Positions 2,740-20,224 of a stretch of DNA of 20,224 nucleotides are shown here, in pieces (positions within the stretch are counted from its first letter, which is position 1; each line of letters starts with the position of its first letter). This DNA comes from a virus (Duplodnaviria > Heunggongvirae > Uroviricota > Caudoviricetes): IMG/VR virus record IMGVR_UViG_2579778929_000009; one strand, given 5' to 3'. The notes under the pieces were generated by a model. The model was given only the letters and a program-made list of their open reading frames with translations. It made no database searches and was not told where the DNA came from. The translations under genes and the position numbers were made by a program.

Positions 2740-4596
2740 TTATGATGATGCTGGTGCATTTATCTCCAGCACCAGACTTTCTATCTCAACGCCATACGCT
2801 GCATTTTTGGTAATATCCGTCAGCGTCAGCGCATTCAGCCCCAGTGTCAGACTGTCTTTTATGACCTGGAATGCCGGGCCAGCCACTCCATTCAGTTTCG
2901 GAGTAACCGTGGCACTGCCGGCGGTGAACACCAGCTCCAGCGTCTGCCAGTCGTTACTGTAATTCCCGAACTCGCCCAACTTTGTGTTTCCTGCTTTCCT
3001 GTGATGCATCAGATTCAGTTTGCCGTCTGTGGTCTGGGTGAAGAACGACATCAGGAACGGGTTACCAGTCCCGGTCATCGCCACGACGTCAGGTAACGCT
3101 ACATCGGTATACAGATAAATTCCCAGACCGAACTGGTTGTTGGTCAGTGCGCCTGACAGTCGAAACTTACAGCTCAGTCTGCCACCCCGTGTCAGCAGGG
3201 AGACTGCGTCATCCACCGGATGCATCAGGGACCAGGTTTTATTGCTCTGCTTGGTAACCTTAAACACACCATCTTCCAGCGCAACACTGCCGCCGGTGAT
3301 GGTCCAGCCCTGCGCAGCAGCCTCTCCGGCTGTCGGCAGCAGGGAGACTGTACGAACGGATGTGTCACCATCAGACGGCCCCGATGGCGTGTCGCCGCCG
3401 GGCGAGGGTTTAATCTCCGGTGCGGTACCGCTGATGAAGGCGCTGGTTCGACCAACTGCGTTCAGAATAGCGGTTGCCAGGCGATCCGAAATAATGCCCC
3501 TGCGCGCCCATGAACTGAAATGTGTCGGACGATTTGACGATACCCAATTACCATTACTACGGGATTGCGCGCCGTAATAACCTGCATCAGCAATATCCGG
3601 GTCTTCTGCCGGTAAGTTGGTGGGCGTGTTGTTGCCGTTACCGTCGGTCATGAACGGCACAAAGAAAACGTTGTCGCTCTCCCTGTTTTTGTACGCGCCG
3701 TAGACGGAGTCATACTGTGTGCCGTATGTGTTTTTCCAGTAATACGTCGTGTCGCCACAAATCCACGGTACAACTGCAGCACTGCCGCCATGGCACTGCG
3801 CCGCCAGCCCGGCAAGGTCAGCACGGAACTGCTGTACCATTGCAAGAAATGCTGCTGGCTGCTGGGCGTAACTGGCATTCGTCATATCGAATTCCCCCTG
3901 CATCCAGCATATCGCCAGCAAAACGTTTTTCGGGTTTTTCTGCAATGCTGCCTTCGTGCGGAAAAGCAGATCCTGATATAATGGTTTACCCACACCCCAG
4001 CGTGCCGAATCCTGGCTGGCCCCCGTGTCCGCACTGAATGTCCCCTCCGCGCCCTGGGTGAATGCCGAACCACCACGACAGCATGGTACCAGCAGGATCC
4101 CCGCATTATTAGGGATATACGGAAGCAGTTTTTTGGCAATATGTAAGCCCTGTCCGACACAGCCGTACTGCCCTTTGCTCAGGTCAGCCCGGGGATGGTT
4201 AATCGTACTCATATCCTGAACATCATGCAGACAATGGTCAGCAGGAATGATGTCGTTAAATACGCATACTTCACCACCGGGAGTCACTGTGTTACGACGG
4301 GCCAGTTGCTTAATGCGCGGATGGGGCGCATCGTATGAATCCGGAAGCGGAAGCCCTTCACCGTAAGCCATGGCATTGGACTGCCCGGCCAGTACGATGA
4401 CGTAGTACCACTCCGGCTCAGTTGCACCACTGACGACCACATCACCTTCTGCTGCAATCGCCTGCATCAGGGTATAAGGGGTTATGGCCACCGGACTACC
4501 AAACGGCTGCCAGCCCTCTTTCAGTTTATGTGTCAGCTTTTCCGCAAGATCTGACGGCGACGCCGCCCTGACAACATCATAGTGTTTAAATGCCAT
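2740..4596 (-). CDS. Prophage 9-O-acetyl-sialic-acid esterase, NanS-p-like (SGNH/SASA hydrolase)
   Basis: 618 aa with a GQSNA motif near the N-terminal domain (SASA/DUF303-type esterase signature) and a GGGAGGA Shine-Dalgarno. It lies between the tRNA cluster and the holin, which is where nanS-p homologs sit downstream of stxAB in Stx phages. Confidence 0.8.
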   Translation of the reverse strand: MAFKHYDVVRAASPSDLAEKLTHKLKEGWQPFGSPVAITPYTLMQAIAAEGDVVVSGATEPEWYYVIVLAGQSNAMAYGEGLPLPDSYDAPHPRIKQLARRNTVTPGGEVCVFNDIIPADHCLHDVQDMSTINHPRADLSKGQYGCVGQGLHIAKKLLPYIPNNAGILLVPCCRGGSAFTQGAEGTFSADTGASQDSARWGVGKPLYQDLLFRTKAALQKNPKNVLLAICWMQGEFDMTNASYAQQPAAFLAMVQQFRADLAGLAAQCHGGSAAVVPWICGDTTYYWKNTYGTQYDSVYGAYKNRESDNVFFVPFMTDGNGNNTPTNLPAEDPDIADAGYYGAQSRSNGNWVSSNRPTHFSSWARRGIISDRLATAILNAVGRTSAFISGTAPEIKPSPGGDTPSGPSDGDTSVRTVSLLPTAGEAAAQGWTITGGSVALEDGVFKVTKQSNKTWSLMHPVDDAVSLLTRGGRLSCKFRLSGALTNNQFGLGIYLYTDVALPDVVAMTGTGNPFLMSFFTQTTDGKLNLMHHRKAGNTKLGEFGNYSNDWQTLELVFTAGSATVTPKLNGVAGPAFQVIKDSLTLGLNALTLTDITKNAAYGVEIESLVLEINAPASS

Positions 4597-4789
4597 GAAT
4601 CCTCCCGGCCGGGATAATATTGTGAGTAAAATGAGGAGCGGGCTGAAGTCCGGAAGTTACAGGACAATGGCAGAAGAGAGACAACAGCCCGCAATACGAA
4701 AAAGGCCGCGCTATTGCGCAGAGTGATTACTGTCGGATATTATTCGCCAGCTGAAATATTACTTCACGTTTTATTGTTTATTCCTTGCC

Positions 4790-4818
4790 GCCCGCGTCTC
4801 CCAGCGCGGGCTTTTTTT
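4790..4818 (+). terminator. Rho-independent terminator on the plus strand with no obvious upstream plus-strand gene
   Basis: gcccgcg (4790-4796), loop tctcccag, cgcgggc (4805-4811), followed by ttttttt (4812-4818). Confidence 0.55.
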
Positions 4819-4823
4819 GCCCA

Positions 4824-5060
4824 CAAGAAAACCCCTCCGGAGAGGGGCTAAAGCCGCGTATCTGTATCATCATGCACATGGTGCCGGGTGCCTCCCGGTG
4901 AGTTCAGCCCGGTGCCACTAAACCCGCGTCATTCTCGTTTTGATAATCAGAGATTATACCGTCACCAGTCGCCCCTCCGCTCAGGGGGATTCACCATGCG
5001 AAATTTTTTTAACAAATGCCCAGTCTGACAGGCAACTGTCAACTTACTGAATTGTGAGCA
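4824..5060. repeat. Paralogous non-coding module A (~235 bp), hairpin-rich
   Basis: Shares conserved blocks with module B: cccctccggagaggggct, catggtgccgggtgcctcccggtga, gcccctccgcNcagggggattcaccatgc, ttttaacaaa and ctgaattgtgag. Contains three perfect short palindromic hairpins. Confidence 0.7.
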
Positions 5061-5093
5061 ACATAGCATTTAACGGGGAACCTGTTTTCTGCA

Positions 5094-5122
5094 GTAAAAA
5101 GGCCCACCGGAGCGGATGGGCC
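5094..5122 (-). terminator. Putative minus-strand terminator between the two modules
   Basis: ggccca ... tgggcc stem; on the minus strand it is followed by ttttta. Confidence 0.45.
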
Positions 5123-5310
5123 TGGAAGGATAGCGGTCATGTGATGCCGGTTTCCCGGTAACTCAGCACCGGTATCTGAGTCAACGTTTTCTCTACTGGG
5201 TCATTTCCGATACGCCCTGCCTGCTGACAGGCTTTCATCACATCTGAAAATATAGCACCCTGACTGATACTGTAGTACCTAAGGTTCCAGAAACTGTGAT
5301 GTATCCGGCA

Positions 5311-5530
5311 CAGAAAAGCCCCTCCGGAGAGGGGCTGGAGAGTGGCGCTATGTGCCATTGCATGGTGCCGGGTGCCTCCCGGTGAATTCAGTACCAGCAC
5401 CTGAATCCGCGATTATCCCATATACCTACTCGCTGATTGCCCCTCCGCACAGGGGGATTCACCATGCCAGTTTCTTTTAACAAACTCCCCGCAAACCAGA
5501 CAACAGTCAACCGCCTGAATTGTGAGACAT
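5311..5530. repeat. Paralogous non-coding module B (~220 bp), hairpin-rich
   Basis: Same conserved blocks as module A in the same order. The hairpin cccctc-cgga-gagggg at 5319-5334 is followed by T-rich sequence on the minus strand. Confidence 0.7.
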
Positions 5531-5532
5531 TT

Positions 5533-5556
5533 AAAAAAAAGCCCGCAAAAGCGAGC
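5533..5556 (-). terminator. Putative minus-strand terminator immediately downstream of the tRNA cluster
   Basis: On the minus strand: gctcgc tttt gcgggc followed by tttttttt. The stem has one mismatch. Confidence 0.4.
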
Positions 5557-5571
5557 CAGTGAAAATAAGTG

Positions 5572-5648
5572 TGGCGCGTTGTACTGGATTCGAACCAGTG
5601 ACCGATTGCTTAGAAGGCAATTGCTCTGTCCGGCTGAGCTAACAACGC
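5572..5648 (-). tRNA. argO: tRNA-Arg (anticodon UCU), argO-like
   Basis: Manual cloverleaf: acceptor GCGTTGT/ACAACGC, D-arm AGCTCAGCCGGACAGAGC, anticodon loop CUUCUAA, T-arm GGTTCGAATCC, discriminator G. CCA is encoded. Confidence 0.8.
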
Positions 5649-5661
5649 AGGATACAGATAA

Positions 5662-5738
5662 TGGACCGCCTTCGGGGACCCGAACTCCGCGCAACCAGCT
5701 TCGAAGGCTGGCGCTCTTTCCTGATGAGCTAATGGCGG
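5662..5738 (-). tRNA. argN: tRNA-Arg (anticodon UCG), argN-like; fold has some mismatches
   Basis: Manual fold: D-stem GCTC/GAGC, anticodon stem CCAGC/GCTGG with loop CUUCGAA, acceptor 6 of 7 pairs, T-stem 4 of 5 pairs. Its position between the two other tRNAs matches the ileZ-argN-argO order of Stx phages. Confidence 0.55.
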
Positions 5739-5745
5739 TATGTGA

Positions 5746-5821
5746 TGGTGGCCCTTGCTGGATTTGAACCAGCGACCTGGCGATTATGAGTCGCTCGCTC
5801 TCACCACTGAGCTAAAGGGCC
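5746..5821 (-). tRNA. ileZ: tRNA-Ile2/Met-type (anticodon CAU), ileZ-like
   Basis: GGCCCTTTAGCTCAGTGGTGAGAGCGAGCGACTCATAATCGCCAGGTCGCTGGTTCAAATCCAGCAAGGGCCACCA. Acceptor GGCCCTT/AAGGGCC, anticodon loop CUCAUAA; closely resembles E. coli ileX as I remember it. Confidence 0.85.
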
Positions 5822-5870
5822 GGGAGCAGAATAATAATGGTGCGTAATTAATTCTGCAATCTCATCCGTT

Positions 5871-18290: not shown

Positions 18291-18472
18291 TCTTTTCATA
18301 CCAACCCACCCCGCCCCACAGAATGCAGGGCAATACTTCGAGTTACCAGGCAGTGGTCAGGGGTTAAGTAGCCAGCCCGAGGCGTAAGAACATGACGGCA
18401 GGGTTCAACTTTAATAACTATGCAGCAGGTTTTTGTTCCGCTACCCCGGCGTTAAGGGGAAATGAGGTCAAC

Positions 18473-18625
18473 ATGGATATGCTCAATCTTGGCAACAACG
18501 AATCTCTGGTATGTGGCGTGTTCCCCAACCAGGACGGCACGTTTACCGCGATGACGTATACCAGAAGCAAAACGTTTAAAACTGAAGCTGGCGCGCGTCG
18601 CTGGTTAACCAGAAACACTGACTGA
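18473..18625 (+). CDS. DUF1391 small protein (YdfA/YdaF-like)
   Basis: 50 aa from the internal Met (MDMLNLGNNESLVCGVFPNQDGTFTAMTYTRSKTFKTEAGARRWLTRNTD) with a GAGGT Shine-Dalgarno; resembles YdfA/YdaF as I recall them. The six-frame ORF extends upstream to 18392. Confidence 0.65.
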   Translation: MDMLNLGNNESLVCGVFPNQDGTFTAMTYTRSKTFKTEAGARRWLTRNTD

Positions 18626-18636
18626 TGAGGTTGACG

Positions 18637-19038
18637 ATGGAATTTAAAGATTTACCAGTACCATTCCAGGAAATGGCATCGAATGTGGTTCGCTCTCAAC
18701 TGGCGACTCTTGACCTGAGTACCGTAGAAAAAGAAACCATCGATACTATATCCGGTAACGTGCGTCGTGCCTTTATAGGTCTGTATGAAGAGAAGCGCCT
18801 ATTCGGCGGACAGAATTCGCCTGAAAACAAGAATCAAGCAAATGATGAGAAGCTGAAACACATTATCGCCTTACTTTTGGAAGACGCAAAACGTCTACAG
18901 CAACTGGAACCAAATGCAGGCACAGAGGCCCGCATTTGGATTGCCATGAAATCACTCAAATGTGAAAGCAGTGATTATTTCAAAACAACAATTAAAACTA
19001 CTCAACTTTCGGGAGAGCTACTGAAGAAATTGCCATAA
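18637..19038 (+). CDS. Hypothetical protein (133 aa) in the pL-like operon
   Basis: Start at the second Met with a GAGG Shine-Dalgarno 6 nt upstream (MEFKDLPVPFQEM…); an alternative ATG at 18625 overlaps the stop of the previous gene. No family recognised. Confidence 0.5.
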   Translation: MEFKDLPVPFQEMASNVVRSQLATLDLSTVEKETIDTISGNVRRAFIGLYEEKRLFGGQNSPENKNQANDEKLKHIIALLLEDAKRLQQLEPNAGTEARIWIAMKSLKCESSDYFKTTIKTTQLSGELLKKLP

Positions 19039-19276
19039 GAGCATGGTCTTTCTCTTGTTCTGCAAGATGAGCATTAATACCTGGTATGGTTTTTTCAAAT
19101 TTATCTATCTGTTGAATAACAACTTCGCGGTATACGTTTGTTTTTGTACCACCAAGCGCAGCCGTTAATGCAGAAAGCATATTTAGTATCATATCAGTGC
19201 GATATGAAAGAATCCTGATAGCTTCATCTTGTTTTTCAATAATAGATTGCAGGGCCTCAATTTGCTTTTTATCCAT
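18998..19276 (-). CDS. Hypothetical protein (92 aa), antisense to the pL-like operon direction
   Basis: ATG at 19276 preceded by a perfect AGGAGG Shine-Dalgarno (caaccctcAGGAGGgtgaaATG). Coiled-coil-like sequence (MDKKQIEALQSIIEKQDEAIRILSYRTDMILNML…). Its 3' end overlaps the convergent 18637-19038 ORF by 41 nt. The six-frame ORF start at 19315 is a GTG. Confidence 0.4.
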   Translation of the reverse strand: MDKKQIEALQSIIEKQDEAIRILSYRTDMILNMLSALTAALGGTKTNVYREVVIQQIDKFEKTIPGINAHLAEQEKDHALMAISSVALPKVE

Positions 19277-19608
19277 TTCACCCTCCTGAGGGTTGGTAAT
19301 TAAGGAGTTCTCCACGGGTCAGGTGGAGTGCGTGCGCCGGACACGGGTGAACATCCGGCACTGACAGTTTACTGAAAGGATATGTCCCTGAAAAGTCAGG
19401 GCATAACGCGAAAGCGCACGGCGAAATTGGTCTCTCTGTACGGTGTCGTTAAATTTAGTTCGACCGTGCGCTTCCGGTTGTGGCAATCCGCGAAATGGTG
19501 CGGCGGTAAGTATGGCGGGGTTATTCCTTCCCCCGTTGAGGACACCGGGTTGTCAGGTTGACCATACGCTTAAGTGACAACCCCGCTGCAACGCCCTCTG
19601 TTATCAAT

Positions 19609-19661
19609 TTTCTGGTGACGTTTGGCGGTATCAGTTTTACTCCGTGACTGCTCTGCCGCCC
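19609..19661 (+). ncRNA. dicF: DicF small regulatory RNA
   Basis: The 53 nt TTTCTGGTGACGTTTGGCGGTATCAGTTTTACTCCGTGACTGCTCTGCCGCCC matches the DicF sequence as I recall it exactly, is followed by TTTTT, and sits just upstream of dicB as in Qin. Confidence 0.85.
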
Positions 19662-19835
19662 TTTTTAAAGTGAATTTTGTGATGTGGTGAATGCGGCTGA
19701 GCGCACGCGGAACAGTTAAAACCAAAAACAGTGTTATGGGTGGATTCTCTGTATCCGGCGTTAATTGTTAACTGGTTAACGTCACCTGGAGGCACCAGGC
19801 ACCGCATCACAAAATTCATTGTTGAGGACGCGATA

Positions 19836-20024
19836 ATGGAAACGTTATTACCAAACGTTAATACGTCTGAAGGTTGTTTTGAAATTGGTGTCACTATCAG
19901 TAACCCAGTATTTACTGAAGATGCCATTAACAAGAGAAAACACGAACGGGAGCTATTAAATAAAATATGCATTCTTTCAATGCTGGCCCGTTTACGTCCG
20001 ATACAAAAAGGATGCTGGCAATGA
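19836..20024 (+). CDS. dicB: Cell division inhibitor DicB
   Basis: 62 aa METLLPNVNTSEGCFEIGVTISNPVFTEDAINKRKHERELLNKICILSMLARLRPIQKGCWQ, near-identical to the DicB sequence I recall; GAGGA Shine-Dalgarno; downstream of dicF. Confidence 0.8.
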   Translation: METLLPNVNTSEGCFEIGVTISNPVFTEDAINKRKHERELLNKICILSMLARLRPIQKGCWQ

Positions 20025-20224
20025 ATACAGCATTTGCACTTGTTCTGACAGTTTTTCTTGTTTCCGGAGAGCCAGTTGATATTGCAGTCAGTGTTCACAG
20101 GACAATGCAGGAGTGTGTGATGATCTCATATCAGGAACTTGTTCGCACCTTCCTTACCCGGTCGATAAAGTTATTCACCAGGATAATAACGAAATCCCGG
20201 CAGGTCTTTAAAACAGTTCCGTAA
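20021..20224 (+). CDS. YdfD-like small protein (phage lysis-associated, DUF1482-type), coupled to dicB
   Basis: 67 aa. The ATG overlaps the dicB stop (ATGA). Hydrophobic N-terminus MNTAFALVLTVFLVSG. Its position after dicB corresponds to ydfD in Qin. The ORF ends at the window edge with TAA. Confidence 0.55.
   Translation: MNTAFALVLTVFLVSGEPVDIAVSVHRTMQECVMISYQELVRTFLTRSIKLFTRIITKSRQVFKTVP

Follow-up and report, generated by a model that had tools for sequence, protein, structure and literature searches.

A covariation-supported RNA module, upstream of the small RNA DicF and shared by lambdoid prophages and phages P1/P7, and its possible role in early-operon read-through

DicF is among the oldest known bacterial small RNAs, and in Escherichia coli K-12 it belongs to the Qin prophage's dicBF operon. 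A K-12 DicF species of 190 nt, with a 5' end made by RNase III, was described early (Faubladier 1990, as cited and re-tested by Ragunathan et al. 2023, PMC10448788). According to PMC10448788, this species builds up when RNase E is inactivated, vanishes in an rnc mutant, accumulates stably in stationary phase, and is trimmed by RNase E to the 53-nt DicF; an internal promoter for DicF was not found. A 72-nt DicF species has also been reported. The region upstream of DicF has already been called a long untranslated region (Balasubramanian 2016). The 190-nt form has thus been seen on gels since 1990, with no role given to its extra 137 nt, which the K-12 papers compared here treat only as precursor sequence. 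Here, the corresponding region was analysed in a virus of the Caudoviricetes, the 20,224-nt stretch IMGVR_UViG_2579778929_000009 of the IMG/VR database (hereafter the window). Within the known 190-nt precursor, a 121-nt RNA module with a four-way junction and a pseudoknot was found. This module is the new part of the analysis and seems undescribed: a conserved folded domain shared among phages was absent from the literature compared, which leaves aside Bouché 1990/1994, Murashko 2017, and the P1 genome paper.

Two other systems offer analogies. Phage HK022, a lambdoid phage without N, carries put elements (putL and putR), each put consisting of two stem-loops of about 70 nt in the nascent early-operon RNA, upstream of terminators. 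A put RNA is a processive antiterminator that needs no protein and acts in cis, making RNA polymerase resistant to terminators. Terminator-type riboswitches may release a terminated product that acts in trans, such as the S-adenosylmethionine (SAM) riboswitches SreA and SreB of Listeria. Both are compared with the module below.

The window locus is the same as the K-12 Qin dicBF operon by homology. DicF (19609..19661, plus strand; 53 nt) consists of a single-stranded 5' seed followed by a terminator hairpin and T5. It was placed there by the initial annotation, which had been made from the sequence alone, and the placement is confirmed by a full-length match to Rfam family RF00039 at 19610-19661 (76.7 bits versus a gathering score of 48) and by identity to the 53-nt dicF gene of K-12. 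The context also agrees with RF00039, since a prophage early operon holds the terminator hairpin and U-run, with dicB downstream of them. The MG1655 coordinates (end of ydfC, 1649041; start of dicF, 1649382) show that K-12, too, has an unannotated gap, of 340 nt, before dicF. Together with dicF, this gap is 92.5% identical to window 19291-19661. The initial annotation had supposed that the region lies where Qin has ydfC. This has to be corrected, because K-12 keeps the homologous spacer of about 340 nt after ydfC. The spacer match is present in 4,120 of 5,426 complete E. coli genomes. The gene order (a ydfA-like gene … spacer, dicF, dicB, ydfD) is shared with K-12. The window differs in lacking ydfB and ydfC, and it contains a phrog_1363 gene and a convergent minus-strand gene instead.

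The processing sites known from K-12 can be located in the window. Counting 190 nt back from 19661 gives about 19472, which lies in the 3' arm of a long hairpin (19409-19476), 5 nt before the module. This hairpin, conserved at the base of its stem and hypervariable at the apex, has the shape to be expected where RNase III cuts, and it is the probable site at which the 5' end of the 190-nt species is made. At the other border, an A/U-rich single-stranded linker (19598..19608, plus strand) precedes the DicF 5' end; its RNase E dependence is taken from the literature. The two cuts thus have the expected settings, double-stranded (a stem) for RNase III and single-stranded (A/U) for RNase E. The DicF 5' end falls between U19608 and U19609, within AAU↓UUU (19606-19611). 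RNase E is reported to prefer RN↓WUU (Chao et al. 2017), which this sequence fits. The published K-12 sequence of the region of the 190-nt species matches the window spacer. The initial annotation had proposed an extended processing substrate for DicF maturation. The proposal was correct, but experiments in K-12 had already established it (RNase III first, RNase E second). As written, that finding was already known, because the K-12 literature shows both the untranslated region and the processing by the two enzymes. Segment 19291-19661 is quite probably an untranslated DicF-precursor segment, with the structured module in it, of a Qin-type early-left (dicBF) prophage operon. It would be transcribed from the plus strand within the operon mRNA. 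By transfer from K-12, RNase III would free the module and DicF together as the 190-nt species, and a second cut, by RNase E, would leave the 53-nt DicF and a module RNA some 137 nt long.

The module (19477..19597, plus strand) forms the 5' part of the 190-nt species. In the proposed fold, the elements are helix P0 (19477-84/19585-92), the P1 helix (19488-92/19499-503), P2a (19504-07/19544-47), P2 (19516-20/19531-35), P3 (19548-55/19575-82), and the pseudoknot (19510-15/19562-67), all on the plus strand. A covariance model (R1) was built on 40 non-redundant module copies; it gives the window copy 145.9 bits and finds no second copy in the window. Covariation was counted in the final model-guided alignment of 53 distinct sequences, where 93.5% of cells hold standard pairs. 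Changes on both sides were found in 20 of the 36 pairs (112 cells), as against 30±4.3 cells in shuffles, none of 500 reaching the observed count, and at most 35 in slid controls. At least one compensatory pair occurs in every helix and in the pseudoknot, which takes the forms GUAUGG/CCAUAC and GCAUGG/CCAUGC (the latter in phage P1) as well as a wobble intermediate. Because the alignment was fitted to the model, the count leans somewhat towards the model; an alignment made by MAFFT only gave the same covariation picture. Minimum free energy (MFE) folding returns this junction for 10 of 15 lineages and for the window module folded by itself. Across genera, the unpaired junction and loop nucleotides do not vary. 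The covariation shows the module to be a discrete RNA structure under selection. With E values up to 10 allowed, Rfam 15 matched nothing in 19200-19609, reporting only DicF and elements downstream of it; four other module loci gave nothing either. The initial annotation had called the region highly structured. Folding energy by itself does not show this (plus-strand z = -1.75, with 4 of 100 shuffles folding as well); it is the covariation across homologues that speaks for structure.

The module is also widespread. In a DicF-anchored survey of 99 distinct IMG/VR loci, at least 19391-19609 was present upstream of DicF in all 99, and all carry the module. When the spacer without DicF was used for the search, the block at about 19477-19600 was also found in phages cdtI, Ayreon, and 2H10, Stx2c phages, Salmonella F1055, an Actinobacillus phage, and P1/P7. 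Further copies from a species-level scan lie in Citrobacter, Serratia, Trabulsiella, Erwinia, and Izhakiella. The module spans lambdoid prophages of six enterobacterial genera and P1/P7. The P1 record has a "dicF-like region" annotated at the module, a short way downstream of the C1-controlled Pban promoters. At least nine cassette types follow the module on its 3' side, each with a single-stranded stretch, a hairpin, and a T-run; DicF is the commonest. The phages L200, L205, L247, and L276 have the module with no terminator cassette after it. Phages of the phiSTEC1589 type carry a DicF-like cassette with the module interior precisely deleted, only the two P0 strands being left (GGTTGTG-AATA-ACAAC). 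Since the L205 type is without the cassette and the phiSTEC1589 type is without the module interior, module and cassette are separable both ways. The module is more conserved than the small-RNA cassette on its 3' side.

Of the functions considered, the likeliest is a cis-acting role of the module, as an aid in the nascent RNA to N-independent read-through into dicB/kil, although we put it forward at rather less than an even chance. With the folded module in its nascent RNA, RNA polymerase would be able to go beyond the adjacent terminator and transcribe dicB/kil and the recombination genes; this role would be set in early operons without an N antiterminator. The position of the module is consistent with such a role. 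In phages P1 and cdtI, it is the first element after an early, repressor-controlled promoter; in most lineages, it lies directly upstream of an intrinsic terminator that has to be read through for dicB/kil. In the window, dicB is the first gene whose expression requires read-through of the DicF terminator. The module's neighbours in lambdoid prophages are dicB/kil and a recE-type exonuclease; in P1, they are tRNAs, tci, and ban. As these neighbours differ between contexts, a host partner or RNA polymerase is likelier than a phage protein. N-like genes were searched for on the same strand up to 4 kb upstream, using four tblastn probes. Where the module is present, an N-like gene was detected in 0 of 191 loci (0 of 29 upstream-context clusters); where the module interior is deleted, it was detected in 22 of 25 loci (4 of 7 clusters, two N types). 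Fisher's test on the clusters, which are not fully independent, gives about 6e-4 by our own arithmetic. The anticorrelation favours, without proving, a cis role in N-independent read-through.

The read-through reading recalls the put elements of HK022. By analogy, the principle might be common to both, namely a folded nascent RNA in the early operon of an N-less lambdoid phage, upstream of terminators, and where there is an N-like gene, the module is missing. However, put consists of two stem-loops of about 70 nt, whereas the module is a 121-nt four-way junction with a pseudoknot; much K-12 transcription terminates right after the module, and its effect on the polymerase is only putative. Homology to put was rejected, as model R1 with filters off gave no match better than E 1.8 in HK022. 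It is a somewhat doubtful proposal, though one worth stating, that the module represents a new class of phage cis-regulatory RNA, either put-analogous yet unrelated or gated by a ligand or host factor. Such an RNA would decide between stopping at the DicF-type terminator and reading on into the toxic dicB/kil and recombination genes, and would take the place of N/nut, both in the P1 ban operon and in lambdoid prophages that lack N.

Besides the lack of kinship with put, several points weigh against read-through control. The N comparison is confounded by shared ancestry, and in three module-deleted loci, among them one with a Qin-like context, no N gene was detected. Of the four N probes, one was validated, as phrog_271; the other three gave matches. 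In K-12, much transcription stops at the DicF terminator, giving a 1,146-nt and a 53-nt species (PMC10448788). An antiterminator helix conserved across cassette types was looked for and not found, and the L205-type lineage described above has no terminator cassette to be read through. Other limits concern the structure and the processing. The covariation in the pseudoknot is in one of its six pairs, the other five being invariant. The 190-nt 5' end is placed in the window by arithmetic from a gel size, and the K-12 processing is transferred on the strength of 92.5% identity.

Two other functions of the module have to be considered beside read-through. It might serve in maturation and stability only, as a scaffold: a compactly folded 5' domain shielding the precursor and fixing the cuts of RNase III and RNase E at its two edges, so that any terminator-ended small RNA placed after it is released cleanly, with no effect on transcription. 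Both processing sites lie exactly at the module borders, the module is co-inherited with many interchangeable small-RNA cassettes, and the stable accumulation of the 190-nt species of K-12 in stationary phase agrees with protection. An alternative predicted fold of the 190-nt sequence pairs the 3' arm of the DicF terminator with GGCGGUAAG in the module (-69.9 kcal/mol, against about -57 to -63 kcal/mol for the competing fold with junction, terminator, and pseudoknot), and this could mask DicF until cleavage. However, invariant unpaired nucleotides across genera represent more constraint than a protective cap requires, the RNase E site already matches a generic consensus, and DicF-like cassettes without the module exist, as does the module without a cassette. 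A scaffold is an unlikely answer, but one to be taken seriously. Less likely again, though still more than a formal option, is an autonomous RNA that binds a ligand or a protein, either a riboswitch-like aptamer with a terminator platform or, as the RNA of about 137 nt, a trans-acting decoy of a host factor. The module does have an aptamer-like fold backed by covariation, a junction and pseudoknot with invariant junction and loop nucleotides, and, in most lineages, the arrangement of a conserved domain, a short linker, and a variable intrinsic terminator. The two known cuts would release it as an RNA of its own, and its differing neighbours in the P1, lambdoid, and L205-type contexts would suit a host partner or small molecule better than a phage protein. 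The likeness to SreA and SreB, drawn by analogy, is in the conserved complex fold with the short linker and variable intrinsic terminator, and in a terminated RNA (DicF) that has targets in trans. On the other side, the neighbouring genes give no clue to a ligand; no conserved, mutually exclusive antiterminator helix was found, an alternative pairing appearing in the DicF and pPE4 types only and not across cassettes; the adjacent intrinsic terminator expected in all members of a riboswitch class is missing in L200/L205/L247/L276; and among the riboswitch and protein-binding families of Rfam, none matches the module even with E values up to 10 allowed.

The remaining explanations concern the identity of the region rather than its mode of action, and all are far less probable. 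That it encodes one or more small proteins or a diverged ydfC is hardly credible. It contains a 59-codon ATG open reading frame (ORF), and hypothetical proteins are annotated over the region in some phage records, although these vary in strand and length among records. This ORF (59 aa, 19382-19561) is the longest on the plus strand, in line with the initial annotation that none exceeds 60 codons. Its ATG and full length are kept in only 9 of the 99 distinct homologues, indels shifting the frame, and the longest ORF across the homologues ranges from 29 to 105 aa. No ORF is conserved among the 99, contrary to the suggestion that the region may hide small ones. Nor do substitutions in the same homologues follow a 3-nt period (0.162/0.146/0.156 upstream, 0.022/0.017/0.023 in the module). 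A tblastn search with K-12 YdfC found no homologue in the window (best E 2.9, at another place in the window), while YdfA, DicB, and YdfD were found. A diverged ydfC with an intact frame, the alternative raised by the initial annotation, was looked for in this way; no frame is conserved. The conservation is accounted for by pair covariation, and coding was rejected on these grounds. Only slightly less remote is a function of the minus strand, as an antisense RNA or as the promoter or leader of the gene at 18998-19276. That gene starts at 19276, and the minus strand has the better folding z (-4.13 versus -1.75). K-12 and most relatives nevertheless keep the region, with homology from 19291, without that gene. 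There is no minus-strand promoter-like site in 19277-19700, R1 has no significant minus-strand match, and the experimentally detected RNAs are from the plus strand. G·U cells (76) also outnumber A·C cells (31) in the alignment, and the plus strand is therefore favoured. Function of the minus strand was rejected on the cell counts, the promoter result, and the published plus-strand RNAs. Comparably improbable is that the invariant GGCGGTAAGTATGG and the upstream CAGTGCTCT form a JUMPstart/ops-like DNA element recruiting RfaH. The rfb JUMPstart (CAGTGCTCTGGTAGCTGTTAAGCCAGGGGCGGTAGCGTG), a 39-mer verified as genuine, and several lambdoid copies share CAGTGCTCT, and TAGCTGTTA-GCC…GGCGGTA is common to the rfb JUMPstart and the P1 copy. 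However, the ops core (GGCGGTAG, with T6 and G8 in register) was not found; the sequence here is GGCGGTAAG, in which an extra A puts A, not G, at position 8. Substitution of G8 in ops abolishes RfaH recruitment. The essential T6 is replaced by C in P7-type copies, with a compensating change in its RNA partner. A profile hidden Markov model of the 5' part of the module (nhmmer) misses the real rfb JUMPstart even at E<100, and in a pairwise whole-window test the module copy is not the best match of the window to JUMPstart. The element was rejected because the profile and whole-window tests fail, the register is broken, and the essential T covaries as part of an RNA pair.

The choice among these readings has consequences. 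If the module governs read-through, it would explain the early-left gene expression of N-less lambdoid prophages, and also the partition of one transcript between a small RNA that inhibits division and a toxic protein. If it is a scaffold instead, it would be a natural cassette system for small-RNA production. The deletion allele of the phiSTEC1589 type is a ready-made natural experiment. Since a covariation-supported fold is common to P1/P7 and several genera, and is better conserved than DicF, the module is a functional unit worth testing.

Short collinear words were also noted between the 5' edge of the module (window 19461-19515) and the rfb JUMPstart (L192 1201-1239), GGCGGTA being present in all lineages; the resemblance is statistically unsupported. 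A distant common ancestry of the two is at most conceivable from these words.

Upstream of the module, the spacer is GC-rich as the initial annotation had described (GC 0.52-0.56 across 19300-19600, versus 0.35-0.45 in the flanks). Its two inverted repeats were also recovered. The ccctga/tcaggg hairpin lies exactly where it had been placed (19386-19391/19396-19401), while gcgcacgg/ccgtgcgc is shifted by 1 nt (19414-19421/19464-19471) and belongs to longer 13-nt arms (19409-19421/19464-19476). The latter arms form the long hairpin (19409..19476, plus strand) assigned above to RNase III on its structure and conservation. A hairpin with a hypervariable apex stands at this place throughout, and its 3'-arm motif ..GTGCKCT.. 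is homologous and directly 5' of the module in every lineage. Three small GC-rich hairpins precede it within 19310..19404 on the plus strand: 19310-15/19323-28, 19336-41/19354-59, and 19382-19404 (core 19386-91/19396-401). The left homology edges among DicF loci fall stepwise at or near hairpin boundaries (19313, 19331, 19342, and 19386/91), so that these small hairpins behave as exchangeable pieces.

The left edge of the interval first annotated (19277) was set by the start of the minus-strand gene at 19276, whereas homology to most relatives starts at 19291. Positions 19277..19290 are the 5' untranslated bases and ribosome-binding site (AGGAGG) of that gene, on the minus strand. Because K-12 homology begins only at 19291, this short piece is a mosaic junction outside the DicF leader. 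Ahead of the spacer lie a DUF1391/YdfA-like gene (18392-18625), the phrog_1363 gene (18637-19038), and the convergent minus-strand gene (18998-19276, phrog_18692). The last encodes 92 aa of unknown function, has a good ribosome-binding site, lies within an otherwise plus-strand operon, and shares 41 nt with the 3' end of the phrog_1363 gene. No promoter-like site was found for it; a plus-strand promoter-like site (CTGATA-17-AATAAT) lies inside the gene at 19215-19243.

Downstream of DicF, the spacer to dicB (19662..19835, plus strand) is also structured, with a multi-branch fold of -65.8 kcal/mol. Its predicted closing helix of about 28 bp (19662-19689 with about 19799-19828) is probably the second RNase III site that yields the 72-nt DicF species. 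This spacer shows a sub-threshold resemblance to the Rfam family STnc100 (RF02076; 38.7 bits versus a gathering score of 47, E 8e-7). STnc100-like elements co-occur with the module, weak ones being found after DicF in the window and after the pPE4 cassette. However, STnc100 differs from the module in structure and position, and the resemblance concerns the spacer between DicF and dicB, not the region upstream of DicF. Weak STnc100-like matches were also seen 3' of the phiSTEC1589 cassette, and one lies within the P1 ban operon (L125 3842-3961). Two full-length STnc100 RNAs (161 and 136 bits) are encoded on the minus strand of the window at 4819-5028 and 5306-5496. Three tRNA genes adjoin them (5575-5821, minus strand), presumably in the late-regulatory region of the same prophage. 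The cell-division inhibitor gene dicB itself (19836..20024, plus strand) matches Pfam PF05358 (127 bits), and its product is 89% identical to K-12 DicB. In the following ydfD (20021-20208), K-12 YdfD gives tblastn matches in two pieces (20021-20143 and 20128-20208); as these lie in different frames, ydfD looks frameshifted relative to K-12.

Several observations were made in other module-bearing phages. In L205, the module (5005-5124) lies in a GC-rich, ORF-poor stretch of about 1.8 kb (3964-5833), also present in L200, L247, and L276, which ends at a strong terminator with a 13-bp stem (5804-5833). Rfam reported nothing in this stretch around the module of the L205-type phages. Possibly this stretch is a long non-coding RNA that carries the module close to its 5' end. 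In Erwinia, Izhakiella, Trabulsiella, Serratia, and Salmonella F1055 (L189, L190, L187, L179, and L127, respectively), the cassette hairpin is longer, about 70-95 nt, with a Shine-Dalgarno-like AGGAG in the loop and ATG or GTG in the 3' arm (…AGGAG…ATGTTCTACCG…). After the T-run of these longer cassettes follows a conserved …CAGA(A/C)AAGAGCATC.CCGG.CGACGGGCTCAT…, which also occurs in the cdtI type. The longer cassette could be a translated leader or a further RNA element. In the Actinobacillus phage vB_Apl-pPE4 (L128, about 2590-2760), …CCACAACAACCCATGTTGATTACCTTTTGGCGGGTATCCGTTTTGTTTTCCCTGCGATACCC… occurs twice in tandem, so that its small-RNA cassette is duplicated; the early region of this phage resembles that of an E. 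coli lambdoid phage despite the stated host. Phage cdtI (L126 40-228) and an Stx2c phage (L129 39-227) both carry, on the minus strand, a C4 antisense RNA (68-80 bits) beside isrK (60 bits), near the replication/immunity region. At the other end of the window, an Rfam match to the ALIL pseudoknot, a frameshift element of the IS3 family, covers positions 1-72 (56.1 bits) and is cut off at the 5' end. An insertion sequence (IS) element therefore probably abuts the start of the window.

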